Shown here one piece after another: positions 3,382-58,756 of a DNA stretch of 64,000 nt. The DNA lies in contig WQWV01000002.1 of the NCBI GenBank assembly GCA_009785175.1, positions 22,749 to 86,748 of the forward strand, given 5' to 3'. The translations under genes and the position numbers were made by a program. The DNA comes from Alphaproteobacteria bacterium. Its GTDB lineage: Bacteria; Pseudomonadota; Alphaproteobacteria; Rs-D84; CACZYB01. The notes under the pieces are model-generated. The model had not been told where the DNA came from, made no database searches, and saw nothing but the letters and a program-made list of their open reading frames with translations. The first letter of the stretch is position 1; every line of letters starts with the position of its first letter.

Positions 3382-3403
3382 TATAAATAACTAAGAATAA
3401 ACC

Positions 3404-3590
3404 CAAATCCCCTCCGGTGGACAGCTCGAGGCAACGAGAGCGCCGGTTCCGTTGTAAAGATTTCAAGCTACGCGTTCACGCGCGCACGCACAGCGTGGGG
3501 GCGGCGTGGTGCGCGCAGCTCTTCGAGCTGGAGAACACAATGTATAAAAAGATTTGTGCGTAGGCGGGATCGCCAAATCGTTGGCGTTTG
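3404..3590. repeat. composite intergenic mosaic repeat (R2 core GGACAGCTCGAGGCAACGAGAGCG + R3 hairpin with loop CAGCGTGGGGGCGGCG + 57-bp unit + GCCAA hairpin); second copy at 37503-37790
   Basis: 57-mer gcgcgcagctcttcgagctggagaacacaatgtataaaaagatttgtgcgtaggcgg is identical at 3511-3567 and 37700-37756; R2 core shared at 3417-3442, 37515-37540, 26268-26290. Confidence 0.85.
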
Positions 3591-3625
3591 TGTGGGCGAT
3601 GGGAGCGGGAGGCTCGCAGGGGATA

Positions 3626-5245: not shown

Positions 5246-5361
5246 GTTTTCCCTCTGGCGCCATAATATAGGATGGAAATTTTTTAATCAATAGGAATTT
5301 TTTACTTGACAAAATATTATAATATGATAGATTATGTCCAGGTAAAACAAGCGAGGTAAAT

Positions 5362-5979
5362 ATGTATGTCCCACGCGATGTAATATACTACTCGAAAATC
5401 GAAGCCGTCCCCTCAAACACAGAGGGCACCAAATCCGGCCCCACTAAAATTATCAGCTCGCGAGAAGTCGTAAAAAGTGTTCTTGAATATGAAAACCGTA
5501 AAGAATATATAACTTTGGACAACAACTGTATACCCTCGATCGGAATCCCCGGCGAGTTGGCTTTCGAAGGGGTGAAAAACGAGATCGCGCCCGACGAAGC
5601 TCTTCACATCGTCGTTGCGACAATAAAAGAAATCACAAAGCAGTATGCCAAGATCGTTCCGACCATTTTCAGGAGGGGCAAATACTGCTCGTTCGATTCG
5701 GTGCAACGTCGGAAAATGGATAATGAATACAGTCAGTTCATAAACGCCGCGGACGTCCTTATCGCGCTTATGGGCGAAGTGGATTTCGTCGAGATGGAAG
5801 ATTCCAAACTTCCGCTTGGCCGTGAACGCGGGCGGCACAACGTCCTTTATATGGCGAAAATGCTACGCGACAAAGCGGCGCTTGCGCGGGCGGGGGAAAT
5901 AGTGGTCAACACCGAGGCGGCGTATTGGGAACGGCTGGCGCAATTAAAGCAGGAACAGGTGCAATTGGTCATGGGTTAG
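5362..5979 (+). CDS. hypothetical protein (205 aa), AT-rich promoter region upstream
   Basis: ORF with AGGTAAA SD; TTGACA at 5308 upstream; no recognisable motif. Confidence 0.45.
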   Translation: MYVPRDVIYYSKIEAVPSNTEGTKSGPTKIISSREVVKSVLEYENRKEYITLDNNCIPSIGIPGELAFEGVKNEIAPDEALHIVVATIKEITKQYAKIVPTIFRRGKYCSFDSVQRRKMDNEYSQFINAADVLIALMGEVDFVEMEDSKLPLGRERGRHNVLYMAKMLRDKAALARAGEIVVNTEAAYWERLAQLKQEQVQLVMG

Positions 5980-5980
5980 T

Positions 5981-7063
5981 TTAGTCGGCGGTAGGCTCGC
6001 CTTCGGGCTTTTTCTTTTCCTTGATCATGCGGCGCAGCATAGCCGTTTGCTTTAGGAAATCCGCCACCGGTTGCGCGGGATAGCCCGACACGATTTCGCC
6101 ATCATTTAGATTCTGTATCACGCCAGCACCGGCACCGACCTGAACCCTATCGCCAAGCGTAAGGTGGCCGTTGATTCCGGCCTTGGGCCCGATAAGGCTC
6201 CAATCGCCGATCGTGGTCGAGCCCGCGATGCCAGCCATCGCCGCTACGATACAATTCTCGCCGAGCTTACAATTATGCCCTATCATAACAAGGCTATCGA
6301 TTTTCGTGCCGCGGCCGATCACCGTGTCGCCCTGTGCGCCCCTATCGACCACAGAGTTAGCACCGATCCACACGTCGTCCTCGAGTATAGTCTGGCCGAT
6401 TTGAGGGACCCATTGGTGGCCCATCGCGTTGGTGTGCCAGCCGAAGCTGTCGCCCCCGATGTTCGCGCCTTCGCCGATATGCACGCGCTTGCCAAGCGTG
6501 GCGTGCGAGATGACCGCGTTTTCAAGAATGTCGCAGTCGTCGCCGATTTCTACGCCGGCCTTGATTTTCGCGCCGCTTGCGATGAACACGCGCGCGCCGA
6601 TTTTTGCGCCCTCGCCAATGGACGCGAAGTCGTCGATGTGCACGGACGATTTATCCTTGAATGTCGCGGTCGGGTCGACGAAGGCCATTTCGGATATGCC
6701 GTTTATCTCGCGCGATTTGTCGCGATAGAAAAAGTTGCTAAGCTGTATGAATGCGCCCTTCGGGTCGAAGGTGATTAGCTTCGCGACGCCCTCGGGTATC
6801 AATTCCGCGTCGTTTGGAGCGACAAAACACGCGGCGGCTTTTAAGTTTTTAAGCAGCGCTTTGAATTTTTCCGTGCGCGCGATTAGGTCAGAGGCGCTGC
6901 CGGCGCTTGAAAAAAAGCAAACCGAATTCTCGTCCGCGTCTTCTAGCCCCGAAAGTTTCGTTATCGTGCGGCCGCCGTCGCCTTCGAGTTCCGCGCCAAT
7001 CATGTCGGAGATTTCGGCAAGGCTTATGCCGTCGGATACGTTGTAAAATCTTGATAATGTCAT
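5981..7063 (-). CDS. lpxD: UDP-3-O-(3-hydroxyacyl)glucosamine N-acyltransferase
   Basis: 360 aa with long left-handed beta-helix hexapeptide repeats (…IGDDCDILENAVISHATLGKRVHIGEGANIGGDSFG…) and LpxD-type N-terminal domain. Confidence 0.85.
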   Translation of the reverse strand: MTLSRFYNVSDGISLAEISDMIGAELEGDGGRTITKLSGLEDADENSVCFFSSAGSASDLIARTEKFKALLKNLKAAACFVAPNDAELIPEGVAKLITFDPKGAFIQLSNFFYRDKSREINGISEMAFVDPTATFKDKSSVHIDDFASIGEGAKIGARVFIASGAKIKAGVEIGDDCDILENAVISHATLGKRVHIGEGANIGGDSFGWHTNAMGHQWVPQIGQTILEDDVWIGANSVVDRGAQGDTVIGRGTKIDSLVMIGHNCKLGENCIVAAMAGIAGSTTIGDWSLIGPKAGINGHLTLGDRVQVGAGAGVIQNLNDGEIVSGYPAQPVADFLKQTAMLRRMIKEKKKPEGEPTAD

Positions 7064-7154
7064 ATCGCTATTGTAGCGGGATTTTGGGGCGGAGTCAAGG
7101 GAATGCTTGACTTATCATGTATTGTTATTATAATTGCCAGTGAAAGGAAATATT

Positions 7155-7853
7155 ATGAAACTTGCCATCAATCCCGAGATTTTCGCAAAGTATGCGCCGA
7201 TAAGGATTGGCGTTTTGGTTTTAGAAAATATAAACAACTCGTCCGATGTAGGCGCGTTTTTCGATGCGGAATATGCCGCGCTCGAGGAGGGTATCGCCGC
7301 AAAATTCGAGGGCGTGGAATTGGCGTCCTATCCGGTCGTGCGCCGCTGGCGCGAGATATACAAATCCTTCGGCGAGAAGGACGCGCGCTCGTCCATCGAG
7401 GCGCTTATCAAACGCGTGAAAAACGGCAAGGGGCTTTATCGCGTCAACCCGCTTGTCGACGTGTATAATTTGGCTTCGTTGAAATTCGAAATGCCGGCTG
7501 GCGGGGAAAATGTCGCGGCGATCGGCGGCGATATGGAGCTTACTTTCGCGGACGGCTCGGAGAAATTTTTGCCTATCGGAGCGACGGATACGGAAACGCC
7601 CAACGTCGGCGAAGTCGTTTACAAATTCGGCTCGACGATCGTATGTCGGAATTTTAATTACCGCGAGTCGGACATCACCAAGTTGACGGCGGATACAACG
7701 CGCGCGATCATAGTGTTCGAGGATGCGCTTGTAGAGGACGGGCGGTTGTCGGAAGCGCTTGCCTATATGGGCGAGAAGGCGGCGGAATTGCTTGGCGCGA
7801 AGGTCGTGCGTAGTGCGGTGCTTTCGGCCGATGCGAATGAAGTAGAGATTTAG
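7155..7853 (+). CDS. B3/4 domain protein (PheT B3/B4-like tRNA-binding domain, stand-alone)
   Basis: 232 aa; AAGGA 8 nt upstream of ATG 7155; sequence pattern of DUF B3/4 family (…YRVNPLVDVYNLASLKFEMPAGGENV…). Confidence 0.55.
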   Translation: MKLAINPEIFAKYAPIRIGVLVLENINNSSDVGAFFDAEYAALEEGIAAKFEGVELASYPVVRRWREIYKSFGEKDARSSIEALIKRVKNGKGLYRVNPLVDVYNLASLKFEMPAGGENVAAIGGDMELTFADGSEKFLPIGATDTETPNVGEVVYKFGSTIVCRNFNYRESDITKLTADTTRAIIVFEDALVEDGRLSEALAYMGEKAAELLGAKVVRSAVLSADANEVEI

Positions 7854-7900: not shown

Positions 7901-8380
7901 CTACTTGCCGGAGTTTTTTCCCTTGAATTTGGAGAGAATAGCCTTGTCGGATTCCTTTTTATCCTTCAATTCTTCCTTTTCACACTTGGCGATGGCTGCG
8001 GCATGTGGCTTTTTGCCATAGCAGATTCTTTTTTCGCCGATAAAAACTCCATCTTCTATTATAAGCAATTTTTCGTTGCCAAGAGATATTTCAAACTTGT
8101 GGAAGCACTCACTATTCTTAGGGTCGCTGATTAGGCGAATATCGGATTTTTTAATGCGTTTGACAATTTCGTCCGAAATTTTCCTGTTCGTTCTGCTATC
8201 GGCATCAAGTTTTAGGGTTTCAAGCCATGATTCACTATCTTCATCGGCATTAAGAATGTCTTCTATCTTGTATGATATTTTTTGCGATGTCCACTTCGCG
8301 AACGGGGAAACCTTGAACCCGACGCGCAATACGTGCATGCCGCCCCTAAAGATGCTTTTAACGCTGTTTCTTATGACCAT
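7901..8380 (-). CDS. hypothetical protein (159 aa), GC-poor, downstream of poly-G promoter
   Basis: ORF with AAAAAGGAGAAAATC-ATG SD; lower GC than neighbours. Confidence 0.5.
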   Translation of the reverse strand: MVIRNSVKSIFRGGMHVLRVGFKVSPFAKWTSQKISYKIEDILNADEDSESWLETLKLDADSRTNRKISDEIVKRIKKSDIRLISDPKNSECFHKFEISLGNEKLLIIEDGVFIGEKRICYGKKPHAAAIAKCEKEELKDKKESDKAILSKFKGKNSGK

Positions 8381-8409
8381 GATTTTCTCCTTTTTGGCTA
8401 TGATTTCCT

Positions 8410-8436
8410 ATTCTACCCCCCCCCGTCGTTTGTCAA
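8410..8436 (-). promoter_or_regulatory. TTGACA-[aacgac+G9]-TAGAAT promoter with homopolymeric G9 tract (C9 on + strand 8416-8424) in 15-nt spacer
   Basis: read on minus strand: cTTGACAaacgacgggggggggTAGAATaggaaatcatagccaaaaaggagaaaatcATG. Confidence 0.55.
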
Positions 8437-8589
8437 GTATTTTAACTATCTGCAGTCGACGGTAGAACTTGTGGGACGAAAATAAAGAGCGGACAATCGC
8501 ACGTCCGGGCAAGCACGAACTTGTGAGTGCCAACGCCCGGGTGGGGCGTGCGTTGGCCGCCTGGCGGCGCGCATACAAATATACGTTAT

Positions 8590-9051
8590 TTAACTATGCG
8601 CCCTTGTAATCGCGATCGCAAGCGCGTCGGCTGAGTGCTCGGAATCGGTTGCGGGTTTGCCAAGCAGCACGCCGACCATCATTTGAATTTGTTCCTTGGT
8701 CGCATGGCCCACACCGGTGATAGATTTTTTCACGAGATTAGGCGAAAATTCCGCGACAGGAATTCCAAACAACGCAGGCACAACAAAAGCCACTCCGCGA
8801 GCCGCGCCAAGTTTCAAAGTCGATTGCGGATTCATGTTCACGAACACGTCTTCTATCGCGGCGGCGGAGGGAGCGAACTTTTCCACAACCTCGCGCAGGC
8901 CGTCGTGTATCAATTTAAGGCGTTCGGACATGGGCGCCTTCTCGGGAACCTTGATCGTCCCGTTTGCGATGTGGACAAGGCTGTTGCCGCGACGCTCTAT
9001 GACTCCCCAGCCGGTGAAGCGAAGGCCGGGATCTATGCCGAGTATTATCAT
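8590..9051 (-). CDS. ruvC: crossover junction endodeoxyribonuclease RuvC
   Basis: 153 aa MIILGIDPGLRFTGWGVIE... with conserved D7, E, D, D catalytic pattern of RuvC. Confidence 0.9.
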   Translation of the reverse strand: MIILGIDPGLRFTGWGVIERRGNSLVHIANGTIKVPEKAPMSERLKLIHDGLREVVEKFAPSAAAIEDVFVNMNPQSTLKLGAARGVAFVVPALFGIPVAEFSPNLVKKSITGVGHATKEQIQMMVGVLLGKPATDSEHSADALAIAITRAHS

Positions 9052-9059
9052 AATATATC

Positions 9060-9150
9060 CTCCGATAAAGCTCCGTTAGGAGCTTGCGCGCACCACGCCG
9101 CCCCCACGCTGTGCGTGCGCGCCCTTCGGGCTCGCCGCCCTGCTCGGCGT
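9060..9150. repeat. R3 structured repeat copy, reverse orientation
   Basis: rc reads ...acgccgagcagggcggcgagcccgaagggcgcgcacgcacagcgtgggggcggcgtggtgcgcgca... Confidence 0.8.
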
Positions 9151-9166
9151 GGTTTGCCCTTTATCA

Positions 9167-10489: not shown

Positions 10490-10772
10490 GTTGGCTCCTT
10501 TGGTTAGTGCAAGGACGCGGAATTGCGTGGTGCCACCTTGCTTCGCTTTGCCGCCGGGGCGGCTCTGCCTCTTTATGTTTACGCCTCGCCATTGTCAGAG
10601 GGTCATGGGCGTTGAGTGGGATTATAGAACGGGGTGGGAAAATTGTCAATAGGGACGACCGATTCGCCGTTTTTCCTATTATTCCGAGCATTATTTTATT
10701 GAAAAAATCAAAATTTATCTCTTTGTATTTACCTATTTTATAAATTATTATTAACTTTTTGATAAAAACATA

Positions 10773-11674: not shown

Positions 11675-13168
11675 ATGAAAAACGTAAACAAAAATACCCC
11701 CCCCCATAACAAATTCTGGTGCGACCTTTATCACCTTACAATGGCGCAGGCCATGTTCCTTGAGGGAACGCACAACGACCCCGAAACCCAGGAGATGTTC
11801 ATTCGCAAGAACCCCTTCAAGGGAGAGTTCACCGTCGTAGCAGGTCTTGCACCTGTGATAGAATGGATCGCCCAATACGGATTTTCGGACGACCAGCTTG
11901 CCTATCTTGCCAGTTTGAAAAACACCAACGGCACGCCCAGGTTCAAGCCGGAATTCCTAGAGCTCCTTAAAAACGAACCGCTACAAATAACCATAGACGC
12001 CATGCCCGAGGGAGAAATAGTATTCCCCAACGAACCCATCGTGCGGATTTCCGGGCCGGCATGGCAGGTAAACCTTGTCGAATCGGCGTTCCTTCAATCC
12101 ATAAACTCGGCATCGCTTATCGCCACAAAGGCCGCGCGCATAAAGGGCGCCGACGAAGGAAAAATCTTCGCCGAGTTCGGACTGCGCCGCGCCCAAAACC
12201 CCATGATGGCATCACGTAGCGCTATCATCGGCGGGTTCAACTCGACCTCGAACGTAGACGCAGGTTTCCAATACGGAATCCCCGTGTCCGGAACCCACGC
12301 GCACAGCTTTATCATGCGTAAAAAGACCGAGCAGGCCGCTTTCGAATCATGGCTTAAACACAATCCAGACAACGCCATGGTGCTGATCGACACATACGAC
12401 ACGATCAACGGGATCAAGCTTGCCATCGAGGCGTCGAAAAAGACCGGTGTGCCGTTGATGGGAGTGCGACTTGACTCGGGCGACCTTGCGGCGCTTTCGA
12501 TCGAGGTTAGGCAGCTACTTGACGCCGCCGGCATGAAGACCACCAAGATCGTGGCAAGCAACGACTTGAACGAATACAAGATCACCGAACTTAAAAAACG
12601 CGGAGCCAAAATCGACTTCTATGGCGTAGGCACCGACGTCGCGACCGGCGGCGACCAGCCCGCGCTTGGCGGAGTATACAAGCTCAAGAAAACCCAAGAC
12701 GGCAAGGTCATAAAATGCTCGGAAGACCCGATCAAAACAACTATACCCGGAGCCACGGAAACTATCCGAATCCTTAGCGAAACCGGCAACTTCAAGCGCG
12801 ACGTCATCACGACCCTAGGGTTCGTGGCGGCAAATGCGGGACGCCTTAGCAAAGACATGAACGGATCAAATATGGACGGATCCTTCGCATGGCCGTATAC
12901 AAAGGGCGAGCGGTTCTATAAACCGATGAGACGAATGGTAAGCCGAGGCAAGGTCAACCCGACGGCAACCAAGCGTTCGGTCATGGAGATCGCCGCGGAC
13001 GCCAAGGCAAACCTTGCAAAACTCGATGCCTCGCACAAGCGCATAACCGTTCCCGCCAAATATCCATATGAAGGCGAATATCCGACAGCCTATCCGGTCG
13101 ACGTCGAAATCGGTCTTTTCAAAGAGCGTAGACGCATGATCGAACAAGCAAAACAGAAACAAAAATAA
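11675..13168 (+). CDS. pncB: nicotinate phosphoribosyltransferase (type II PRTase; could alternatively be nicotinamide PRTase)
   Basis: 497 aa; N-terminal DLYHLTM motif of NAPRT/NAMPT family; adjacent pncA favours nicotinate specificity; C9 tract in codons 8-10. Confidence 0.7.
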   Translation: MKNVNKNTPPHNKFWCDLYHLTMAQAMFLEGTHNDPETQEMFIRKNPFKGEFTVVAGLAPVIEWIAQYGFSDDQLAYLASLKNTNGTPRFKPEFLELLKNEPLQITIDAMPEGEIVFPNEPIVRISGPAWQVNLVESAFLQSINSASLIATKAARIKGADEGKIFAEFGLRRAQNPMMASRSAIIGGFNSTSNVDAGFQYGIPVSGTHAHSFIMRKKTEQAAFESWLKHNPDNAMVLIDTYDTINGIKLAIEASKKTGVPLMGVRLDSGDLAALSIEVRQLLDAAGMKTTKIVASNDLNEYKITELKKRGAKIDFYGVGTDVATGGDQPALGGVYKLKKTQDGKVIKCSEDPIKTTIPGATETIRILSETGNFKRDVITTLGFVAANAGRLSKDMNGSNMDGSFAWPYTKGERFYKPMRRMVSRGKVNPTATKRSVMEIAADAKANLAKLDASHKRITVPAKYPYEGEYPTAYPVDVEIGLFKERRRMIEQAKQKQK

Positions 13169-22704: not shown

Positions 22705-23002
22705 TCCCCGCCTCGAACTTGGGATTGATCGGAATGTCGAAAACGGATATTATATCGCGCGCAGTGATCGCCTTGAAATCGGAAAGTCTCGCATCGGAAA
22801 GTTGACGCACGCGCGTAATCGAAAGAAGCGATATGATCTCGGCGCGCACCACGCGGATTTCGGTTTCCGCCCCGGCTATATCACGCTCGACGCCCGCGAT
22901 CTCTTTGTTCAAAAGGTTCGCGCGGTATTGCAAAATCGCGGAGGTTATCACAAGCATCATCGAGCTTGCGATACATACGCCATATACGGTCGATTTCTTC
23001 AT
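22697..23002 (-). CDS. ftsL: cell division protein FtsL
   Basis: 101 aa bitopic coiled-coil protein between rsmH and ftsI. Confidence 0.65.
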   Translation of the reverse strand: MKKSTVYGVCIASSMMLVITSAILQYRANLLNKEIAGVERDIAGAETEIRVVRAEIISLLSITRVRQLSDARLSDFKAITARDIISVFDIPINPKFEAGNE

Positions 23003-23859
23003 ATCCTTATGCCAGCCCGAAGTTTCGCAGAGGCAGCGCGCGGGTTCAAGGCTACCTCTTCCGTGCTAGGAATTATAGCATTTTTGGCCAGAGTTTGGAA
23101 GTCCTTTTTTACTTGGGCGGGCGTGGGCGCATAGCGGGAAGCGCTTGGCTGTTTGGGTGTGAAAAAATTTTTCGCGATGCGGTCTTCAAGCGAGTGGAAG
23201 GACACTATTACAAGGCGGCCGCCGGCGGCAAGAAGCGATTTCGTTGCGGCAAGTGCGGTGGCGAGCTCGTTCAACTCGTCGTTGACCGCGATACGCAGCG
23301 CCTGGAACACTTTGGGAATGTCCTTGTGCGGGAGGAGTTTTGTAAGTTGAGCCGTCGTTTCTATGGGGCGATTCGATATTAATTTTTTTGTAATCGAACC
23401 TGCGTGCGATACCTCGCCATATTCGCGGAGGATTTTTGCTATGCGCTCGGGTTTGGAGGTATTCAAAATGTCGGCGGCGGTTTTGGTTGCGCCCTCTCCC
23501 ATTCGCATATCCAACAGGGCGTCAAAACGGAAAGAAAATCCACGCGACGCCGTGTCGATCTGCATCGACGATACGCCGATGTCCATGACTATGGAATCTA
23601 CTTTTTCTTTGATGATGCCGATTTGCGAGAAGGGAAGATTGTGAAACTCTAGGTTGCCGTATTTTTTCTGTAGCTCCTTTACACGGGGCAAAACGCTCGG
23701 ATCGCGATCGAATGCGATGACATTAGCGCCAGTCTTTAATATTGCCTCGGTATACCCGCCATAGCCGAAGGTGCAGTCGATGATTGTTTGGCCTTTGGCC
23801 GGTTTTAGAATTTCCAAAACTTCATTTAGGAGGACGGGAATGTGTGGCGCGTTTTGCAT
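22999..23859 (-). CDS. rsmH: 16S rRNA (cytosine1402-N4)-methyltransferase RsmH (MraW)
   Basis: MQNAPHIPVLLNEVLEIL…CTFGYGGYTEAIL matches RsmH N-terminus; TATAAT lies 9 nt upstream of this ATG. Confidence 0.85.
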   Translation of the reverse strand: MQNAPHIPVLLNEVLEILKPAKGQTIIDCTFGYGGYTEAILKTGANVIAFDRDPSVLPRVKELQKKYGNLEFHNLPFSQIGIIKEKVDSIVMDIGVSSMQIDTASRGFSFRFDALLDMRMGEGATKTAADILNTSKPERIAKILREYGEVSHAGSITKKLISNRPIETTAQLTKLLPHKDIPKVFQALRIAVNDELNELATALAATKSLLAAGGRLVIVSFHSLEDRIAKNFFTPKQPSASRYAPTPAQVKKDFQTLAKNAIIPSTEEVALNPRAASAKLRAGIRI

Positions 23860-24151
23860 GCCTATATTATAACACAAAGTTCGAAAGAAGGCTAGGAACT
23901 TAACCCGTAAAAAAGGTGCTTGTATTCCCCGAGTGTTGTGCTATCCTTTGATTGTATCCGAGAGGGTGCCAAGGCTTAAAGAACCTTGCGATAAGGGTGT
24001 TGGATATGTCCCTAAACATACCCCTGCTTGAGCGGGGAGCCGTTGCTATAAAATAGGAGAAATCCGAAGGCAGCGGGGTCATCTTATCGTGATTTCTTTA
24101 ACTCCCCGCGCCTTTTCTTGGATCATAAAAAACCAAGGAGAGAGATCGTTC

Positions 24152-24433: not shown

Positions 24434-24871
24434 TTATCTATCGCGCTTGGCTTTATCCATCATCTCGGATAGTCCCAAAATCGGGTTCTTGCCCTGATAT
24501 TGCTTTTTGGATTCCTCGTTGGAAACCACGAAAGAGTTTCCGAATTTCTTTTCGTATTGGCGCAACAGAGCGGGAAATTTGTCGGGATCTATGCCGCCGG
24601 ATATTTTTATCGAGGCGAAATCCGCTTCTTTGAGTTGTGGGAATTGCTTGAGAAGAAAAGGTTTGGCAAATTCGGTAGCACGCGGAAGCGAGTGCGTCAT
24701 AAGGTCGTCGCCCGTCATGAAATTCAATACATCATACACATCATCAATGCGCCCGTCGGAAACTAGGTATCCCGTAGTGATATTCAAAATCTGCGCGAGA
24801 GTGAATTCTTTTTTCGTGATGTCCTTTTTAAGTTTGGACGTCCCAGTATTCAGGTCTTTTTTCGATACCAT
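24434..24871 (-). CDS. hypothetical protein (145 aa) inserted between mraZ and rsmH
   Basis: AAAGGAG SD; promoter with A9 tract and palindromic operator upstream. Confidence 0.5.
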   Translation of the reverse strand: MVSKKDLNTGTSKLKKDITKKEFTLAQILNITTGYLVSDGRIDDVYDVLNFMTGDDLMTHSLPRATEFAKPFLLKQFPQLKEADFASIKISGGIDPDKFPALLRQYEKKFGNSFVVSNEESKKQYQGKNPILGLSEMMDKAKRDR

Positions 24872-24898: not shown

Positions 24899-24961
24899 AT
24901 GATACAATCTATTTTTTTTTGTCAACTATTTTCCTGTTCCGCTCCGCGGAAAATAGTTGAC
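24899..24961 (-). promoter_or_regulatory. promoter TTGACA-[A9 tract]-N15-TATCAT overlapped by perfect 13-bp inverted repeat GTCAACTATTTTC-N15-GAAAATAGTTGAC (candidate operator)
   Basis: T9 at 24912-24920 on + strand; IR arms 24921-24933 and 24949-24961. Confidence 0.5.
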
Positions 24962-25236
24962 GGGGGAGTTTCAAATCATAAACCCAAATCTTATGCAACG
25001 GGCGGATAAGCCAGGCACGAAGTGCCGCAGCGAATCAGGGCCCCGTTGTAGAAGATTTATGCTTTTCGCGCTTTGCGCGAGGGGGGGGGCGCCCTGCGGG
25101 CTTGGAAAGCCTATGGTTTGATTTGCCTTAAAACTCTCCGCCCGGGGAGTTTTGGCGGCGACCCGCCTTCGCATAGCTCCGGCGAGGCAGGGGCTAGTGT
25201 TGGCGCACTCGCGGGGGAAGTTTCATTATACGTTGC

Positions 25237-25686
25237 TTAGTTTTTCGGAATCACCAGACTCGGGCGTTCGCGTTGGGCGCGGGTGCGGTCAAGTTCCTGC
25301 TGCTCCTTGAAGTCGGCGGCGTTCCAAATCTGAAAAGTCTTGCCGCGGCCGACGAAAAGCGCCTTGCCATTTATACCCGCGTGAGCGAGTAGATCCGCTG
25401 GAACAACTATGCGGCCGGCGGAATCGAACTGTAGGCTGCGCGCGTCCGAGAATATCAACGAGTTTATGCTTTGCGCCTCCGAGCCGAAAAGATCCATCGT
25501 GTCGGCGGCGTCGGAGATTTTCTCCATGCGATCCATAGTGCAGCCCTCGATACATTTCGCGGTGAACGAGCGGTAAAGGACTACGCCCGCGTAAATCCCC
25601 TCGGGGACGGCGTGGCGGAACTCGACTGGCACGGACGTGCGGCCTTTCGAATCGATTGTTCCCTCGATGGCGCCTAAAAACAACAT
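25237..25686 (-). CDS. mraZ: transcriptional regulator MraZ
   Basis: two DxxxR/DSKGR-type repeats (IDSKGRTSVP… and FDSAGRIVVP…), 149 aa. Confidence 0.85.
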   Translation of the reverse strand: MLFLGAIEGTIDSKGRTSVPVEFRHAVPEGIYAGVVLYRSFTAKCIEGCTMDRMEKISDAADTMDLFGSEAQSINSLIFSDARSLQFDSAGRIVVPADLLAHAGINGKALFVGRGKTFQIWNAADFKEQQELDRTRAQRERPSLVIPKN

Positions 25687-26250: not shown

Positions 26251-26550
26251 AAATCTCCCCTTGTGGACAGCTGGACGAGGCAACGCCGAAGTGCCAGCAA
26301 GGTTCCATAAGGGGAGATTTGTGTTCAAGCGGCAAAGCCGCGCCTGCCCCCTTTAATAACAATGGTTTAATTTGCCCAAAAAAGCCAAGAGCAGTTGGCT
26401 TTTGTTAGGCGATGCTTGCATGGGCTCGCGGGGAATTTTTTCTATTGTCATTCCGGCCACCGGGCCGGAATCTAAGCCGACTGGATACCGGGTCGAGCCC
26501 GGTATGACAAGAGATTAAATCCCCCTTGGTGGTGCCTTGGGGGATTTTTG
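26251..26550. repeat. composite intergenic repeat block: R2 element (26251-26320), GCCAA hairpin/terminator (26385-26410), tandem hairpins incl. R1 copy (26449-26508), R2-mini hairpin (26515-26550)
   Basis: each sub-element has copies elsewhere in window. Confidence 0.8.
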
Positions 26551-26566: not shown

Positions 26567-26929
26567 CTAGCGCTGAAAGCTTGTATAATAGGCGACGGGT
26601 TTGCGGTTATGGGTATGATAGCCTACAGCAAGGCGGCATACTTCGCCACGAAAAGGATCCTTGTGCTCGGCCTTCAATATATTCTTATCGGCAAGGCATT
26701 TGGTCATGATCGTATTATATAAAAACTGGCCTTCTTTTTCCTTGTCGGTGAATATGTGTCCGTCAACCCAGACCAAGTAATGTCCGGTGCGGCGTTCGAT
26801 ATATGCTCTTGTCCTATCCAAGGAATTAAGAATAGAGTAATTGCCATTCACTATTGCAAACTTGACGCGATTGTATTGGATATCTTTGAGCAGATCACTT
26901 ATTTGGGGTTGTCCGTAAACTTCGGTCAT
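26567..26929 (-). CDS. hypothetical protein (120 aa) downstream of poly-G promoter
   Basis: AGGAG 8 nt upstream of ATG 26929; longer ORF start 26968 would lie in the promoter. Confidence 0.5.
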   Translation of the reverse strand: MTEVYGQPQISDLLKDIQYNRVKFAIVNGNYSILNSLDRTRAYIERRTGHYLVWVDGHIFTDKEKEGQFLYNTIMTKCLADKNILKAEHKDPFRGEVCRLAVGYHTHNRKPVAYYTSFQR

Positions 26930-26964: not shown

Positions 26965-26994
26965 ACAATACCCCCCCCCGGAAGATTTTGTCAA
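26965..26994 (-). promoter_or_regulatory. TTGACA-[aaatcttcc+G9]-TATTGT promoter with G9 tract (C9 on + strand 26971-26979) in 18-nt spacer
   Basis: same architecture as 8410-8436 and 32971-33000. Confidence 0.5.
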
Positions 26995-28001: not shown

Positions 28002-29372
28002 ATGATCAAAGTCGCGGTCGCTATCGCCGCTATCGTTTTGTTATTCGGAGTCGAAGCAGGAGCCAGAAAAGATTCCCGTATCGCCGATGCTTGCAAGTTC
28101 AACAAGGACATAGACACCGAAGTTTTGGATTTGGCGGACGCGATAGAACTCGCGCTTTGCAACAATCCCTCGACACGCGCAACGTGGCTTGCGGCAAAGG
28201 CTGCTACCGCATCTTACAACCGCGCGTATGCGCCATATCTCCCTACCCTTTCCGCCGAGGCAACATATCAGCAGGGGCGCACGGATCAATATACATACGT
28301 CGAGGACAACACGTTGATGACCAACGGAACATCGATCGGCGCGTCGGCAAGCTGGCTTTTGCTTGACTTCGGTCGGCGTGGCGCGAACTATGACATGGCG
28401 CGCGCAGCGATGATGTCGCGCGAGTTCCAGCACAATTCGAACATGCAGGAGACGGCGTTCGTCGCAATCCAAAATTTCTATAACCTTATCTCGGCCGACG
28501 AAGCGCTTGTGGCGGCGCGTGCGAACGAAGATGCTTCGGGCAAGGCCGCGCAAATCGCGGGCCGAAAATTCGAGCTTGGTATCAACTCGCGCGCCGACGT
28601 GTTGCAGGCGGAAACGGCTTTTTACCAAACGCAATTAAATACGACCCGACAGGAACAGGCTGTGTTGATCACCCGCGCGCAGCTTGCCCAATCCCTTGGC
28701 CTTCCTTCAAGCATAGCCCTTCAAATAGCTATGCCAGAAGAGAGCGAGAAGCATTCGATCGAGGCCGAGCAAAACCTTGACGAGCTTATCGCCACGGCGC
28801 TTGCCAACCGTTCGGATTTGCGCGCGCGTATCGAAGACGTGAAATCGTCGAAGGCGGGGATCGACGCTGTGCGGAGCGACTTCCTCCCTACGCTTACCGC
28901 GTTCGGTCGATCAACATGGAATTTCGACCACGACCATGATGCGAACGACCGGCCGTTCCATCACCAGCGCAGCATGGCCGCCGGCCTGACTTTGTCCGTG
29001 CCTTTGTTCAAAGGGTTCGACACGACGTTCGCCTATAGCGCGGCGAAATACAACTATCGCGCGGCGCAGGAAAATCTTAAACTAACCGAGCAGCAGGTCG
29101 AGCTTAGCGTAGTGAACGCATACCACAATTTCTCGACCGCGCAAAAATCGTTGGTGCTTGCGAAAAAAATGTTGGAATCCGCCACGGAATCCGAGCGCGT
29201 CGCTATGGGCTCGTATCAAGCCGGGCGCGGAAATATCCTTAACCTTTTGGATGCACAGGCCGCGCTTGCCCGCGCACGAAACGAGCTTATCGCCGCGCAA
29301 TACGGGCTTTACACTTCGAAGGTAGCGTTATTGAGAATGATTGGAATGCTCGACGCGCGCAACATGCACTAA
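28002..29372 (+). CDS. TolC-family outer membrane efflux protein
   Basis: signal peptide, two OEP repeats with conserved Leu heptads. Confidence 0.75.
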   Translation: MIKVAVAIAAIVLLFGVEAGARKDSRIADACKFNKDIDTEVLDLADAIELALCNNPSTRATWLAAKAATASYNRAYAPYLPTLSAEATYQQGRTDQYTYVEDNTLMTNGTSIGASASWLLLDFGRRGANYDMARAAMMSREFQHNSNMQETAFVAIQNFYNLISADEALVAARANEDASGKAAQIAGRKFELGINSRADVLQAETAFYQTQLNTTRQEQAVLITRAQLAQSLGLPSSIALQIAMPEESEKHSIEAEQNLDELIATALANRSDLRARIEDVKSSKAGIDAVRSDFLPTLTAFGRSTWNFDHDHDANDRPFHHQRSMAAGLTLSVPLFKGFDTTFAYSAAKYNYRAAQENLKLTEQQVELSVVNAYHNFSTAQKSLVLAKKMLESATESERVAMGSYQAGRGNILNLLDAQAALARARNELIAAQYGLYTSKVALLRMIGMLDARNMH

Positions 29373-32690: not shown

Positions 32691-32872
32691 ATGCCCCGGC
32701 CAAGGAGGAGAGAGAGAATAAGGAGGGAATGGCCGGGGCTACTATGTCATACCGAAATGAGGGGTCGTCCCGGTTAAACACAGACCTGCTGAAAAGCAGA
32801 TAGCACTATTTTAGACAGGATTTACATTATTTGTCAACCGATTTCTTAAAATATTATTTTGTCAAGGTATAA

Positions 32873-32893
32873 TATCCTGTATTTACAGGGATA
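32873..32893 (+). promoter_or_regulatory. inverted repeat TATCCTGTA-tt-TACAGGGATA (candidate operator) ~80 bp upstream of poly-G promoter
   Basis: 9/10 complementary arms. Confidence 0.3.
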
Positions 32894-32970
32894 ATTTATA
32901 TATAAAATTCCTATGGGCGCGCTTTTGCGAATCGGTATATAGACCTTTGGCGGGATAGAATGCTTTATGC

Positions 32971-33000
32971 TTGACAAAATCCTGTGGGGGGGGGTAGATT
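32971..33000 (+). promoter_or_regulatory. TTGACA-[aaatcctgt+G9]-TAGATT promoter with G9 tract (32986-32994) in 18-nt spacer, driving the 33032-34666 operon
   Basis: -35 32971-32976, -10 32995-33000, AAGGA SD then ATG 33032. Confidence 0.55.
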
Positions 33001-33031: not shown

Positions 33032-33448
33032 ATGAAAAGATTCCAACTTTCGGTAAGTAGCGGCAAGGCGGTGGAGAATCACCTGGTCGAATGCAAAAAC
33101 TGCTCCAACAAATGCGCCATGCAAAACCGTGTCGACGAAAGCCCTCGGGACGCAATAAACGGATACGAGGAAGTAGTAAACTTCCTTATGAAAACACACG
33201 GCTGCATCGTGGCGCGAAATGTCGTCGCAAGGCTTCTGGGTTTTAACTGGAGAGCAAGCAAAAAGGACGTCGAATTCCTTATCTTTGCCGACAAGGGCGG
33301 AAAGAACGGCAAAATAAAACTTGCAATCAATTTCCCGGAAGATTATTCCGATATGGAGAAGGCTATAGTAATGATCGACGATATGAAGCACGTCATACAA
33401 CACCACAACAGGTCCCCTATAGCAGGCGCCAAAAAAGGCGGGAAATAA
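33032..33448 (+). CDS. novel small protein, paralog 1 of 3 (N-terminal Cys cluster C-x2-C-x3-C; conserved KIxLxINF…DM block)
   Basis: 138 aa; shares N-terminal CxxDCxxC-NKP-like motif and C-terminal GKIKLAINFPEDYSDMEKAIVMIDDM block with next two ORFs; GC-poor. Confidence 0.55.
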   Translation: MKRFQLSVSSGKAVENHLVECKNCSNKCAMQNRVDESPRDAINGYEEVVNFLMKTHGCIVARNVVARLLGFNWRASKKDVEFLIFADKGGKNGKIKLAINFPEDYSDMEKAIVMIDDMKHVIQHHNRSPIAGAKKGGK

Positions 33449-33450
33449 AC

Positions 33451-33879
33451 ATGAACCGTTTCGAATTTAACATCAACTATGCCGGCAAGGGAATTATCGA
33501 TTGCGCGGTCGATTGCAAAAGCTGCCTTTATAAACCCGAGCGCTGGGACCGCTCGAACTGTGTAAGGCTTCAACCGCACGAAACCGTCGACGGCGCCGCA
33601 AACGTCGGGCTATACCTTACCAACGAAGCGAAAGATTGCGCGGTGGCGGCCAAGGTCGGCTCGTCGCTTGTCCAGAAATACAACGGCGGCGCGCTTTCGA
33701 TTTCCATACCGAAAACAAAAAGCGGCGCGTGCAACAAAATCGAAATCAACCTTTTCGTGCCCGAGGCGGACATGGGTGGCGACTATATTCGATCGCTTGT
33801 CGGCAAAATAGCCACGGAAATCGAGCGTTTCGACATAACCAAGGGCGCCACCATGGCATCACTTAAAGGAAGCAAGTAA
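33451..33879 (+). CDS. novel small protein, paralog 2 of 3
   Basis: 142 aa; IDCAVDCKSCLYKPE…NKIEINLFVPEADMGGDYIRSLVGKI; 2-nt intergenic gap. Confidence 0.55.
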   Translation: MNRFEFNINYAGKGIIDCAVDCKSCLYKPERWDRSNCVRLQPHETVDGAANVGLYLTNEAKDCAVAAKVGSSLVQKYNGGALSISIPKTKSGACNKIEINLFVPEADMGGDYIRSLVGKIATEIERFDITKGATMASLKGSK

Positions 33880-34349
33880 TGAAAACTCTCTCCTTCACAA
33901 TGAAAAACGACGGCGCGGACGTCAAGACATGCTCGATCGACTGTGCGAACTGTCTCAACAAGCCGGCGGACGCGGAGTCGTGCATAAAAATCGCGCCAAG
34001 CGAAGCCATACTTAAATGGACCTTCGTAATGAAATACCTCGAGCAATTCAAGGGCCGAAACCTTGGCGGAGATATAGGCGAAACCGGCATAGAAAAAATG
34101 GGCTGCATTATCATCAGGGACATATACAACACAGTAATGCAATACGGAAAAAGCATACGTATACCCGAACTTCGCATGTCCAAAGCAACGGAGGGCGAGG
34201 GGAAAATCGGCCTTAGCCTTAACGTTTCCAAAAAAGACATGGACAACGATCGAATCATAGAGTTCATCGACCGAATAGCCTATGCTATTATGGAGCGCGA
34301 CAGCTCGATGCTCGAGACCGCCCAAGGTCAGCTTCAATACGGAGGCTAA
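33879..34349 (+). CDS. novel small protein, paralog 3 of 3
   Basis: 156 aa; CSIDCANCLNKPADAESC…GKIGLSLNVSKKDMDNDRIIEFIDRI; start overlaps previous stop. Confidence 0.55.
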   Translation: MKTLSFTMKNDGADVKTCSIDCANCLNKPADAESCIKIAPSEAILKWTFVMKYLEQFKGRNLGGDIGETGIEKMGCIIIRDIYNTVMQYGKSIRIPELRMSKATEGEGKIGLSLNVSKKDMDNDRIIEFIDRIAYAIMERDSSMLETAQGQLQYGG

Positions 34350-34351
34350 AA

Positions 34352-34666
34352 ATGCAAATCATAACAAAAAAGTATTTCGGCATAGGGGCGGTTGCGAAGA
34401 AACTTGTTTTGATGGAATCGCATGCGATGAGGGAAATAGGAGAATACCTTATGATGAGGCAAGCCGTATTCGCCCTGCCCCCCTATAACGAGTGGTATGA
34501 GATAATACTTACCGTGCGCGGAGAGGCCAATACCACGATAGAAGTTTGCGCTACCAGAGATTTGGCGCCAGCCCAGCGACGGGCGGTAGAAACAGACGCG
34601 AAGGTGATGCAAGGCATAATCGACCATTACAAAAATAAAAATAATACGGGCAAAAGTGGACGCTAG
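34352..34666 (+). CDS. hypothetical small protein (104 aa), fourth gene of operon
   Basis: 2-nt gap after paralog 3. Confidence 0.45.
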   Translation: MQIITKKYFGIGAVAKKLVLMESHAMREIGEYLMMRQAVFALPPYNEWYEIILTVRGEANTTIEVCATRDLAPAQRRAVETDAKVMQGIIDHYKNKNNTGKSGR

Positions 34667-37478: not shown

Positions 37479-37502
37479 AAATTCTTAATCAAGCATAACC
37501 CC

Positions 37503-37790
37503 AAATCTATACCTATGGACAGCTCGAGGCAACGAGAGCGAGGTTCCATGGGAATAGATTTGTAGCTACGCGCAAAGCGCTCCCTCCCCCCCCATTTTTT
37601 TGATAACACAGGTTTAATCTGTCTCAAACAAAACATCGACGTAGCGATACTCGCATCACGTCCTAGCGCCACTACGCCGGCAGGGCGGAAGCGCCAATGG
37701 CGCGCAGCTCTTCGAGCTGGAGAACACAATGTATAAAAAGATTTGTGCGTAGGCGGAACGCCAAGAGCAGTTGGCCTTTGTGAGGCGGCG
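37503..37790. repeat. composite mosaic repeat, second copy (R2 core, C8/T7 tract, R3 fragment, identical 57-mer at 37700-37756, GCCAA hairpin)
   Basis: see 3404-3590. Confidence 0.85.
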
Positions 37791-45801: not shown

Positions 45802-46700
45802 TGATTGCGTTAGAGGCAAGGAGGAAATGGCTTGACTTCTTGCGCTCGGAGAGGCGGTTTTCGGCGCACACGTTGGTCGCATACGAAAACGATATCGGAG
45901 ATTTTTTGAAGTATGTCGGCGGGCGCGATTTGTCCGACATCTCCTTGCGCGAATTTCGCGGATTCGTCGCCACCATGGCGCGAGAGGAATTGCGCGCGAC
46001 CTCTATTGCCCGGAAAGTTTCGGCCCTTAAAAGCTTCTATCGATTCCTCGAGCAGAACGGGATAGCGAACAATCCATACGTCGCGATTTTGCGCCTGCCG
46101 AAGCAGCCGAAAAAACTTTCGAAATCGCTTGGCCACGAGGACGTGGGCGAGATTTTGGACGCCTTCAACGCGATCGCTAAACTACCATGGATAGCACGGA
46201 GAAATCGCGCATTATTTACTTTGATATATGGCGCTGGCTTGCGAATTTCCGAGGCGCTTGGCGTCAACATCGAGGCGGTGGGAGAGGACGAAATACGCAT
46301 TCGCGGCAAGGGATCGAAGGAGCGGATCGTGCCGCTTCTATCAGTTATAAAAACCGAGATCGAATCGTATATCAATGCTATGCCTTTTTCGCGCACGACC
46401 GGGCCGTTGTTCATCGGGGAAAAAGGAGCGAGGCTGTCGGCGCGCGTGGCGGAACGCGACTTTGCGGCGGCTAGAAATTATTTACAACTATCGGCAAGCG
46501 CTACGCCCCATTCACTTCGTCATTCGTTCGCGACGCACCTGCTTGCCGCGGGTGCCGATTTACGGACTATACAAGAGCTGCTTGGGCATTCGTCGTTGTC
46601 TACAACTCAACTTTATACCAAAACGGATATGGGCACGATCGCGAAGCAATATGCGAAATCGCATCCGCGGGCTTCGTTTAACAAAAAGTCCTTCGCGTAG
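45801..46700 (+). CDS. xerC: tyrosine recombinase XerC/XerD family
   Basis: core-binding N domain; catalytic R…HxxR…Y (HSLRHSFATHLL, LGHSSLSTTQLYT). Confidence 0.8.
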   Translation: MIALEARRKWLDFLRSERRFSAHTLVAYENDIGDFLKYVGGRDLSDISLREFRGFVATMAREELRATSIARKVSALKSFYRFLEQNGIANNPYVAILRLPKQPKKLSKSLGHEDVGEILDAFNAIAKLPWIARRNRALFTLIYGAGLRISEALGVNIEAVGEDEIRIRGKGSKERIVPLLSVIKTEIESYINAMPFSRTTGPLFIGEKGARLSARVAERDFAAARNYLQLSASATPHSLRHSFATHLLAAGADLRTIQELLGHSSLSTTQLYTKTDMGTIAKQYAKSHPRASFNKKSFA

Positions 46701-46800
46701 CAAGCGACGCCGAGCAGGGCGGCAAGCGGTGTATACCGCGCGCGTCCAGCGTGGGGGCGGCGGAGCGCGCGGAGCCCTTCGGGCTGGAGGGTCAAATTAT
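46697..46800. repeat. R3 structured repeat copy (stem CCGCGCGC/GCGCGCGG, loop GTCCAGCGTGGGGGCGGCGGA)
   Basis: 5' arm GACGCCGAGCAGGGCGG conserved. Confidence 0.8.
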
Positions 46801-47439: not shown

Positions 47440-49215
47440 TTGATCACCTGGAACTCGAACGGCAAAGTCGGCGGCAAGGGAGCTGCGTTATTTCGATTGA
47501 CCGATATGGGTTTGCCGGTGCCGGAATTCTTCGTCGTGTCGACCGACGCGATGGCGGCATTCATAAAAGAAAACGATATACGGGCCGGAGATTCCAAGGC
47601 TATCATGCGCGGAAAACTTTCGCCTGAGCTCGAGAAGGAAATTACCGCCGCCGCTGCTGCGCTGGGGGGGGGTAAATTCTCCGTTCGTTCGTCCGCGACG
47701 ATGGAGGACGGAGCCGAAAAATCCTTCGCGGGGCAATTTTCTTCTTTCTTGAATGTCGACAAAAAGGGCTTGCCTGCGGCGATCAAAAAAGTGTGGGCAT
47801 CGTTGTTTTCCGGCGGAGCGGCCGCGTATGCCGGGCGCGGATTCGATTCACATTCCATGGCAGTCATAGTTCAAAAGATGGTGAAGCCTTACGCCGCAGG
47901 AGTCGCCTTCTCGATCAACCCTATGGCCGCCGATAAAAACTATATGCTTATCGAATCGTGCGCGGGCACGGGCGACAAGCTTGTGTCCGGAAAAATCACG
48001 CCCTCTAAATATTTCGTGCGTAGATCGTCCAAAAAAACAGACGCGGTTTATGGGCGCCGGCATATATCCGAATCATCGCTTAAAAAGCTTGCCTCGTTCG
48101 TGCTTGAAATCGAGCAGGAATTCGGCACGCCGACCGATGTAGAATGGTGCGCGTCGGCAAGCGGCAAAATCCATATACTACAGGCCAGGCCGATAACATC
48201 CTTCGCGCCGGCACCGATCGAATACAGAAAACTTTTCTCGCGCCCGCATTCGATAATGAAACTTCAACTTTACAGACATGCCGAAGACGACGGGTTGAGG
48301 GCGCTTACGAACGGGGATTATCATTACACGCCTTTGTTCACATACGACGCGGCAAGGGACACCGTCGACGTTCATTACAATTTCAATGCGCCCGAGCAGC
48401 ACCCGGCAAATATCCTTCGCGAGATGGATTGCCGATACGCATGGACGGCCAACAAATACCGCGCGGCGGAGAAGGCGGTTCCGGCGGTGCTTGAATACAT
48501 ATCGGGAAAAAGGAAATTCGAGGCCGAAAAATTCCTTGGGCTTTTGCGCATGGTTTATACGCTTTCGAATCTTGGCAACGTGTCGGAGTATACGAAATCG
48601 AAAAGAATGCGGCGACTTGCGGCGGGATTCAGAAAGAAATACGACTATGTCGCCTATCGCGCCGAGGACTTCTTGATCGAAAAGGCGGCCGAGGTCGCGG
48701 CGCCGGAACTAAGGGACGACCTTCGCTTCTTAACCTTCGAAGAAGTGTTCGGAGGACGGCGCGTGTCGCGGCGCGAAATCGACGTCCGTAAAAAAGGGTT
48801 CGTGTATTTCGGCGGAGAGTTGACATGCGCGGCAAGCCTTAAACCGGTGCTTGAGAAAAATAATTTTTTCATCGCGGAGGAGGCGCCGAAACACGGAGCG
48901 CTTAGGGGACAGTCGATATGTCGCGGCGTGGCCACCGGTGTCGTGCGAATCATCTATGGCCCGAAGGACTTCGGCAAATTCCGGGCGGGCGACATAATAG
49001 TCGCGCCGATGACCTTGCCAAGCTTCACGCCGTTGATGAAAATCGCCGCCGCAATCATAACGGACGAGGGCGGTGCGACGTGCCATGCCGCGATAGTCGC
49101 GCGCGAGCTTAAGGTTCCATGTATCATAGGCGTGAAAAACGCGACGTCGGTTTTGGCGGACGGAGAGAAAATAAGGGTCGACGCGAATACCGGCGCTATT
49201 TCCTATGAACGCTGA
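47440..49215 (+). CDS. PEP-utilising enzyme family protein (pyruvate,water dikinase-like N-terminal ATP-grasp + C-terminal phosphohistidine mobile domain); TTG start; G9 tract in codons ~75-77
   Basis: C-terminal GGATCHAAIVARELKVPCIIGV; N-terminal PPDK_N-like. Confidence 0.7.
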   Translation: MITWNSNGKVGGKGAALFRLTDMGLPVPEFFVVSTDAMAAFIKENDIRAGDSKAIMRGKLSPELEKEITAAAAALGGGKFSVRSSATMEDGAEKSFAGQFSSFLNVDKKGLPAAIKKVWASLFSGGAAAYAGRGFDSHSMAVIVQKMVKPYAAGVAFSINPMAADKNYMLIESCAGTGDKLVSGKITPSKYFVRRSSKKTDAVYGRRHISESSLKKLASFVLEIEQEFGTPTDVEWCASASGKIHILQARPITSFAPAPIEYRKLFSRPHSIMKLQLYRHAEDDGLRALTNGDYHYTPLFTYDAARDTVDVHYNFNAPEQHPANILREMDCRYAWTANKYRAAEKAVPAVLEYISGKRKFEAEKFLGLLRMVYTLSNLGNVSEYTKSKRMRRLAAGFRKKYDYVAYRAEDFLIEKAAEVAAPELRDDLRFLTFEEVFGGRRVSRREIDVRKKGFVYFGGELTCAASLKPVLEKNNFFIAEEAPKHGALRGQSICRGVATGVVRIIYGPKDFGKFRAGDIIVAPMTLPSFTPLMKIAAAIITDEGGATCHAAIVARELKVPCIIGVKNATSVLADGEKIRVDANTGAISYER

Positions 49216-57240: not shown

Positions 57241-57812
57241 GGCACTATAGAGAACTCGCGATGGTCGACGCATACGTCCGGCAGGCAAACAGCACGATAA
57301 AGCTTGTCGAAGACGACAACATAATCACAATTAGGAAGCGCTTGGATTACAATTGGCTTGACGCGGACTATAAATTCACCAACAAGGTATACAACGTGCT
57401 TGTTCCCGAATTGCGTTCGCCGATAAAGCTTAGCCGGACGAATGTTTATAAATCCGACGGGGGGGGGTGGGAATATTACGGCTGCTATTCGTCCATATAT
57501 GTAGGATCGCTTACCCCATACAGCTATTCATCGTCAGTAAACTGCGACGCGGACGAAATGTTCAACCTTATTGAAAAGCAAATCGAAAACGGAAAGAAAT
57601 GTATCCTTGCAATCAGATATGAAAATAGAAACCAAAAACCGGGCGACGCCTCGATGGAACATAGAAAAAGACAGGCGCAAGCCCACGCCGACTGCGATGC
57701 GGAAGCATTCTTTAAGATTAGAAAAGCCGCAACGAAAGTCGCAACTGTGCAAGACATAGCGACGGCGAAAAAGACCCTTAAGGCCATAATGAACGACAAA
57801 CGGAAAAGGTAA
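57237..57812 (+). CDS. hypothetical protein (191 aa) with in-frame G9 tract (57459-57467, codons GGG GGG GGG)
   Basis: ORF; GC-poor. Confidence 0.45.
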   Translation: MRHYRELAMVDAYVRQANSTIKLVEDDNIITIRKRLDYNWLDADYKFTNKVYNVLVPELRSPIKLSRTNVYKSDGGGWEYYGCYSSIYVGSLTPYSYSSSVNCDADEMFNLIEKQIENGKKCILAIRYENRNQKPGDASMEHRKRQAQAHADCDAEAFFKIRKAATKVATVQDIATAKKTLKAIMNDKRKR

Positions 57813-58027
57813 AATAGAAAGTAAGCAAAAACTGGTCAAAGAAGAAAGCATACGTCTTTAACAAAAGCAAGGAATTGATACCCTCGCCCGATGCTAAAAT
57901 AGAACGACCGTGCAAAATCCGCGTTGGCCGCTATAAAGCACCTTATACTATAATTATCTGGATTGCATCTGCTACGCGTTCCCTCTGTTCCCGGCTTGTG
58001 GGGGGGGGGTAATGACGAGAGAGAGCT

Positions 58028-58753: not shown

Positions 58754-58756
58754 AAA

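Follow-up and report, generated by a model that had tools for sequence, protein, structure and literature searches.

Promoters with a G9 tract in the spacer, and a wider set of long poly-G runs, in an uncultured alphaproteobacterium: candidates for phase variation

Homopolymers within promoters modulate the spacing of the promoter elements and give rise to phase variation at fim of Bordetella pertussis (poly-C) and vlp of Mycoplasma hyorhinis (poly-A). To our knowledge, nearly all cases of homopolymer-driven phase variation come from cultured pathogens adapted to a host. Poly-G tracts are found in promoters as well. In porA of Neisseria meningitidis the tract lies between the -35 and -10 boxes, and 11G, 10G and 9G result in high, intermediate and low expression, respectively (PMC3639595). 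The tp0126 promoter of Treponema pallidum also carries a poly-G between -35 and -10, with a 17-nt optimum and graded expression; in this organism, with 52.8% GC, alleles of 9 G predominate and clear length variation was seen in 76% of 17 tracts (PMC7864442). In Campylobacter the commonest lengths are 9 (53%) and 10 (26%) with the G on the coding strand, and genomes hold 5-81 phase-variable genes, with a median of about 20 in C. jejuni (PMC6321876).

We observed the same sequence logic in an uncultured alphaproteobacterium. The stretch of 64,000 nucleotides that we analysed, hereafter the window, is part of an 88.8-kb contig from an NCBI MAG labelled Alphaproteobacteria bacterium (locus tags FWD15_). 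The SmpB sequence points to 'Rickettsiales bacterium Gx485_bin9' as the nearest genome, with 67% identity, and sample Gx485 comes from the gut of the lower termite Glyptotermes (PMC11707648). Reading of the sites and a pattern search revealed the arrangement TTGACA-N6/9-G9-TAnnnT at three places in the window, with spacers of 15, 18 and 18 nt:

8410..8436, minus strand: promoter 1, TTGACA (8436-8431), AACGAC, G9 (8424-8416), TAGAAT (8415-8410); spacer 15 nt.
26965..26994, minus strand: promoter 2, TTGACA (26994-26989), AAATCTTCC, G9 (26979-26971), TATTGT (26970-26965); spacer 18 nt.
32971..33000, plus strand: promoter 3, TTGACA (32971-32976), AAATCCTGT, G9 (32986-32994), TAGATT (32995-33000); spacer 18 nt.

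A first-pass annotation had proposed that the three share one design of TTGACA, G9 and -10 box, and direct reading together with the search of the window bears this out. A scan for TTGACA-N0-10-G8-N0-10-TANNNT gave 3 matches in the window, compared with 0.00 in 100 dinucleotide-preserving shuffles. On the plus strand the tracts of promoters 1 and 2 read as C9, at 8416-8424 and 26971-26979. Each of the three is a G9, which places it in the hypermutable class of 8 or more G/C, and each sits inside the spacer between recognisable -35 and -10 hexamers, so that, as far as the sequence tells, the length of the tract sets the spacer. The distance from the candidate -10 box to the ATG is 29-35 nt at all three sites, and the ATG is preceded by AAAGGAG or AAAGGA. 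Sites 2 and 3 were also called independently by a generic sigma-70 promoter scanner, which misses site 1 because it accepts only spacers of 16-18 nt. The extended -35 motif CTTGACAA is present in 9 copies against 1.2 expected, an enrichment that fits the CTTGAC consensus reported for alphaproteobacterial sigma-70 promoters. Upstream of promoter 3 we also observed a cluster of near-consensus promoter-like sites on both strands, at 32808-32873. A terminator-like hairpin at 32784-32801 (minus strand) suggests a possible small divergent transcript in this region.

The spacers were said to lie off the optimal length, and this too is borne out. Homopolymer promoters have spacers of 15, 15, 18 and 18 nt in the window, with a further 18 in Gx485_bin9, whereas TTGACA promoters that are free of a tract (non-coding sites with a -10 candidate) are mostly at 16-17 nt, the individual values being 16, 17, 18, 17, 16, 17, 18 and 16. 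The Fisher p for this contrast, worked by hand and with a mechanical assignment of the -10 boxes, is ~0.02. Spacers of 15 and 18 nt would mean that the majority state of every homopolymer promoter is one or two steps away from the optimum. One of these promoters carries an A tract:

24899..24925, minus strand: A-tract promoter, TTGACA (24925-24920), A8, TAGATTG, TATCAT (24904-24899); spacer 15 nt.

This site had been described as an A9 variant. The promoter is real, but the run of nine counts the last A of the -35 box and the spacer itself holds A8. We rejected TAGATT as its -10 box, as the spacer would then be 8 nt, and TATCAT at 15 nt fits. The A-tract promoter drives a DUF7736/phrog_15963 gene (24434-24871), an insertion in the division-cell wall cluster that separates mraZ (25237-25686) from rsmH (22999-23877). 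The -35 box of the promoter lies within a perfect 14-bp inverted repeat, GTCAACTATTTTCC/GGAAAATAGTTGAC (24926-24965 region), and the whole module recurs ~6 kb to the left of the window, upstream of another gene (around position 1349 of the ENA contig L090).

Among the promoters without a tract, the one at 5305-5340 has the skeleton of site 3 (CTTGACAAAAT...TAGATT.TGTC) with an AT-rich spacer of 16 nt. This tract-free homologue, at 5306, supports TAGATT as the likely -10 box of site 3 and suggests that the G9 fills what would otherwise be ordinary spacer DNA. A perfect TTGACA-17-TATAAT promoter is present at 10627-10649 (minus strand); its spacer contains CCCACCCC, which may be an interrupted, decayed C tract.

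Downstream of the three G9 promoters are the following genes, listed with a hairpin that precedes the first of them:

8490..8507, minus strand: terminator-like hairpin between ruvC (8590-9051) and promoter 1.
7901..8393, minus strand: g1, including its Shine-Dalgarno sequence AAAGGAG at 8387-8393; 159 aa, GC 0.41, a complete ORFan, NCBI MCL2439082.
26567..26929, minus strand: g2, 120 aa, GC 0.44, a complete ORFan, MCL2439105.
33032..34666, plus strand: g3 operon of four ORFan genes, at 33032-33448, 33451-33879, 33879-34349 and 34352-34666.

With the hairpin at 8490..8507, g1 would form its own transcription unit. All of these look like real genes from their sequence, with frame-specific, host-like codon usage and strong Shine-Dalgarno sequences, and the genes of the operon are tightly coupled. 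In the operon g3a, g3b and g3c, which carry a CxxC motif, are tandem paralogs that have diverged (BLASTP E 1e-10 and 2e-7). A search of 5.8 billion proteins for homologues of g3a and g2 returned none but the query itself, and g1 likewise found the query alone among 1.84 billion representatives. Neither g1, g2 nor g3a matched a family in Pfam, PHROGs, PADLOC or NCBIfam, the only family match in those scans being DUF7736/phrog_15963, for the A-tract gene. A scan of JGI metagenomes for sites 2 and 3 with a tract of any length gave no match. AlphaFold models of g3c, together with its two paralogs, and of g1 reached a pLDDT of ~38. No signal peptides were found in the promoter-driven genes, and their products are predicted to be cytoplasmic. 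The targets had been described as GC-poor, which is correct for g1 (0.41) and g2 (0.44), but the operon genes, at 0.47-0.53, are only slightly under the window mean of 0.52.

The promoter tracts belong to a larger set of long G/C runs. The window contains nine runs of 8 or more, compared with ~0.16 expected by geometric extrapolation, and the view that the tracts exceed chance and are located in promoter spacers is in this respect well founded. Counts by run length are 41 of five, 4 of six, 0 of seven, 1 of eight, 7 of nine and 1 of ten, a bimodal distribution with the mode at 9. Another assembly, used to lengthen the contig, added six long tracts, to give 15 in 81.3 kb or ~1 per 5.4 kb. Six of the runs in the window were absent from the first-pass annotation:

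11697..11705, plus strand: C9 in codons 8-11 of the nicotinate phosphoribosyltransferase gene pncB (11675-13168), in frame.
25081..25089, plus strand: G9 in the variable centre of a structured repeat copy (24975-25135).
37586..37593, plus strand: C8 in the variable centre of a structured repeat copy (37495-37650).
47664..47672, plus strand: G9 inside a PPDK_N/PEP-utilizer gene (47440-49215), encoding LGGGK, in frame.
57459..57467, plus strand: G9 inside an ORFan (57237-57812; DGGGW), in frame.
58000..58009, plus strand: intergenic G10 with convergent genes on either side.

The 15 tracts comprise three in promoter spacers, four in the first 15 codons of a gene, three deeper in ORFs and five in intergenic DNA, and the proposal that the three promoters form a special class is not upheld, as they account for just three of the 15, the others being coding or intergenic and including those of a dispersed repeat. 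The tracts in the first 15 codons are those of pncB at 11697, of a gene at L090 4779, where the tract lies in the signal peptide, and of two paralogs at 13830 and 16563 of the contig that extends the window to the right (L088); those deeper in ORFs are at 47664 (PPDK_N protein), 57459 (ORFan) and L088 20326. Three of the five intergenic tracts lie at the centres of repeats. In the window six of the nine tracts are non-coding, even though ~87% of it is coding, and three of the nine are within 10 nt of a TTGACA hexamer, of which the window has only 32. The G is on the sense strand in 11 of the 12 gene-associated tracts, pncB having the sole sense-strand C. No obvious gene or promoter accompanies the G10 at 58000, with a TATAAT at about 57950. 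At 58028-59488 there are two tandem paralogous formyltransferase-like genes, of 241 and 243 aa.

Long tracts are over-represented relative to relatives as well as to composition. No run of 7 or more is present in five relatives whose AspRS is 63-68% identical (81 kb together, GC 0.41-0.54), and just three were counted in ~1.07 Mb of other alphaproteobacterial loci. The exception is Gx485_bin9 (contig L003), with two G9 runs in 10 kb, the only relative examined that has them. One of these sits in CTTGACA-G9-TAAATGTGC-TATAAT, with a spacer of 18 nt and the tract abutting the -35 box. Both belong to a single gene (5873-7234), the first being in the promoter spacer and the second at codons 7-10. 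The dense G9 set is lineage-specific. The relatives turned up by an AspRS-based metagenome scan were free of tracts. A contig found in the same scan (L104) was set aside as unrelated, as its G8 runs, in a tRNA and in terminators, are a different phenomenon. In a tract-free relative represented by three assemblies (L172, L173 and L174) the gene calls differ without long homopolymers, with AsmA called as 860 aa or 164 + 673 aa and FtsQ as 236 aa or 141 + 105 aa.

We compared the window with assemblies of the same strain from ENA (ERZ27264051) and Logan (SRR5215205 and SRR10512954), covering ~58 kb in total. There are zero substitutions and two differences only, both of them homopolymer indels. 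The tract at 58000 is G10 in the window and G11 in Logan SRR5215205, the sole difference in 6213 nt, and an A7 at 29163-29169 is A6 in the ENA assembly, which shifts the 3' end of a TolC-like outer-membrane factor (456 vs 440 aa). The difference at 58000 could be an assembly error. The promoter tracts are G9 in every assembly from NCBI, ENA and Logan. Promoter 1 is identical in Logan SRR10512954 (L001) and ENA ERZ27264051 (L090), promoter 2 in ENA contigs L085 and L086, and promoter 3 in ENA contig L002. Because all these assemblies are of one strain, at 100% identity, they demonstrate neither variation nor fixity of the promoter tracts. The start of L001, 6 nt upstream of tract 1, was considered as a sign of heterogeneity and found uninformative, as other Logan contigs cross tracts.

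The reading frames of the genes with 5'-proximal tracts include both ON and OFF states. In simulations of tract length the gene at L088 13830 encodes 22 aa with the assembled G10 and a 94-aa protein with a signal peptide with G9, and that at 5958 of the Gx485_bin9 contig encodes 11 aa with G9 and a 431-aa secreted protein with G8 or G11. These two are OFF as assembled. The paralog at L088 16563, where G9 is in frame and encodes 348 aa, L090 4779 and pncB are ON. Such ON and OFF frames are what contingency loci would be expected to show. The two paralogs to the right of the window (L088 13797-14080 and 16530-17576) have a common N-terminus, ..TVNS..YGGG, which is encoded through the poly-G. Signal peptides are present in four of the tract genes, and two of the targets encode metabolic enzymes, with cytoplasmic ORFans at the promoters.

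We think that promoter-spacer phase or volume variation by slippage is the probable function of the three sites. In outline, sigma-70-type promoters built on the alphaproteobacterial CTTGACA would hold the G9 as the half of the spacer that adjoins the -10 box, and slipped-strand mispairing during replication would add or remove one G. Site 1, weak at G9 with a spacer of 15 nt, would reach 16 nt at G10 and 17 nt at G11, while sites 2 and 3 would go from 18 nt at G9 to 17 nt at G8. Each promoter would switch alone, to produce a population that is mixed for g1, g2 and the g3 operon. The three promoters may then be the transcriptional arm of a lineage-specific poly-G 'phasome', with the G9 and G10 tracts in the 5' ends of genes, several encoding secreted proteins, as its translational arm. 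Most likely the G9 runs serve as on/off or volume switches that are thrown by mutation, a mechanism already known but here in a new host; we infer that these hexamers are the ones in use, that tract length varies at the promoters and that expression changes with it. The first-pass annotation had gone further and called the promoters a coordinated phase-variable regulon. The other marks of poly-G phase variation are present, but coordination is unsupported because slippage at separate tracts is independent. Beyond the sigma-factor elements and the tract, site 1 has no motif in common with sites 2 and 3, both of which carry TTGTGTCTA.

Some features of the set argue against switching. The promoters drive small cytoplasmic ORFans, whereas typical phasome targets are surface or restriction-modification genes, and a switching role is not obvious for the tracts in pncB, in the PPDK_N protein gene or in the repeat element. 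It is possible, if rather unlikely, that the tracts are static products of a mutational or repair peculiarity or of insertion, that in the three promoters the run is no more than spacer DNA, and that the sub-optimal spacing it fixes makes constitutively weak promoters for costly ORFans. Invariant promoter tracts across assemblies and the occurrence of tracts in enzyme genes and in a repeat would agree with this, as would the uniform length of nine and the T-G9-TA flanks, which point to a common origin or constraint and not to locus-specific tuning. However, every measurement made of G9 runs has shown them to be hypermutable (PMC6321876, PMC7864442), the two genes in the OFF frame are one G from ON, the datasets differ as G10 and G11 at 58000, and the placement of tracts is enriched in promoter spacers and 5' coding ends.

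The flanks of the long tracts raise a further question, as a strict T-G9-TA bias is not predicted by simple slippage. A T precedes 60% of the long tracts vs 26% of the short runs, several reading (C/T)TAT-G9-TA, and TA follows 8 of the 15 (53%) compared with ~3% of G3-G6 runs. The bias extends to the coding tracts. Tracts also occur within a dispersed family of intergenic repeats of ~80-170 nt, which form a long hairpin, AAATCT...AGATTT, with a stem that covaries between copies, a variable centre and a conserved 3' box, GGTTTAATCTGCCTCAAAC:

24975-25135, 37495-37650, 3393-3595, 2226-2417, 26332-26429, 46699-46789 and 9069-9157: copies of the repeat in the window.
L088 14289-14459 and 17619-17799: copies outside the window.

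Three copies have G9, G8 or C8 at the centre and a fourth has a GC hairpin there, and the copy with C8 has the same element orientation as those with G9 and G8. Rfam gave no match at the repeat elements. It is conceivable, but doubtful, that a mechanism of this lineage creates, maintains or reads G9TA, that the tracts are more than contingency loci and that the ORFan promoters are wired into it. An insertion process, some idiosyncrasy of a polymerase or of repair, or a protein dedicated to binding would be examples of such a mechanism.

A more specific proposal, and one we hold to be improbable, is that G9(TA) is the recognition sequence of a trans factor, whether a poly(G/C)-binding regulator, a nucleoid protein or an uptake or recombination signal, which would make the promoters a true regulon. 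In its favour are the TA that follows the long tracts and the 6 copies of the motif GGGGGGGGGTA in the window, where 0.01 would be expected, and the TTGTGTCTA of sites 2 and 3 is in both cases downstream of the tract. Yet site 1 is without this extra motif, the position of the tract relative to the -35 box differs, abutting it in Gx485_bin9 for example, and no candidate regulator was identified in 81 kb of genome. Moreover, a homopolymer makes a poor stable recognition site, and coding tracts with consequences for the frame fit slippage better.

It also seems very unlikely that the G9 lies in a 5' UTR, acting on mRNA structure, stability or translation from real promoters further upstream. There are several promoter-like sites at 32800-32900, and for site 3 TTAAAA-16-TATAAT at 32846-32873 would be a candidate; read-through into g2 from the upstream APH gene is possible too, no terminator having been found between them. 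Against this, a perfect CTTGACA is placed 6-9 nt upstream of the tract at three independent loci, the -35 and -10 boxes recur in the homologous promoter without a tract at 5306, and a terminator-like hairpin stands upstream of promoter 1. A sequencing or assembly artefact, for instance poly-G from two-colour chemistry, is scarcely credible: the assemblies differ in homopolymer lengths only and nothing specific favours it, but the same tracts are present in three independently processed datasets, on both strands and internal to contigs, they are in frame within conserved genes, and relatives assembled in projects of the same kinds lack them.

Phase or volume variation by slippage remains our preferred reading of the three promoters. 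The logic of the pathogen systems is now seen in an uncultured alphaproteobacterium with one tract-bearing relative from the gut of a lower termite; the apparent density is far above that of the classic cases, and the tracts are attached to lineage-specific ORFans and to secreted proteins. If variability is confirmed, stochastic switching would emerge as a major strategy of a lineage of symbionts or commensals, the ORFans would be candidates for costly or conditionally useful functions, and the promoters would provide a natural series in which the spacer measures 15, 16, 17 and 18 nt. Should the tracts be stable, the question becomes what creates and keeps T-G9-TA runs in this lineage.

How far does the likeness to known systems reach? 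The fim and vlp promoters differ from those described here in the base of the homopolymer and in activator dependence (BvgA for fim), and both control surface structures. The porA promoter is matched by site 1, which has equal arithmetic, 15 nt at G9 and 17 nt at G11, whereas sites 2 and 3 would reach the optimum with one G fewer, not more. PorA is moreover a major surface antigen of a cultured pathogen with measured variation, in contrast to the cytoplasmic ORFans of an uncultured alphaproteobacterium studied here by sequence only. T. pallidum has a similar GC content and, as here, its promoters and ORFs both contain scattered tracts of at least 8 G. It differs in its targets, which are outer-membrane proteins, in that some tracts (tprL) overlap the -10 box and not the spacer, and in a far lower density, with ~20 tracts studied in 1.14 Mb (PMC7864442). 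The set as a whole resembles that of Campylobacter in its length peak at 9, the mostly coding-strand G, the mix of intragenic and intergenic tracts and the ON and OFF frames. In Campylobacter, however, 77-82% of tracts are intragenic, and there is ~1 phase-variable gene per 40-80 kb as against 1 tract per 5.4 kb on this one contig. If the contig is representative, the density would be ~10x that of Campylobacter, amounting to hundreds of tracts per genome.
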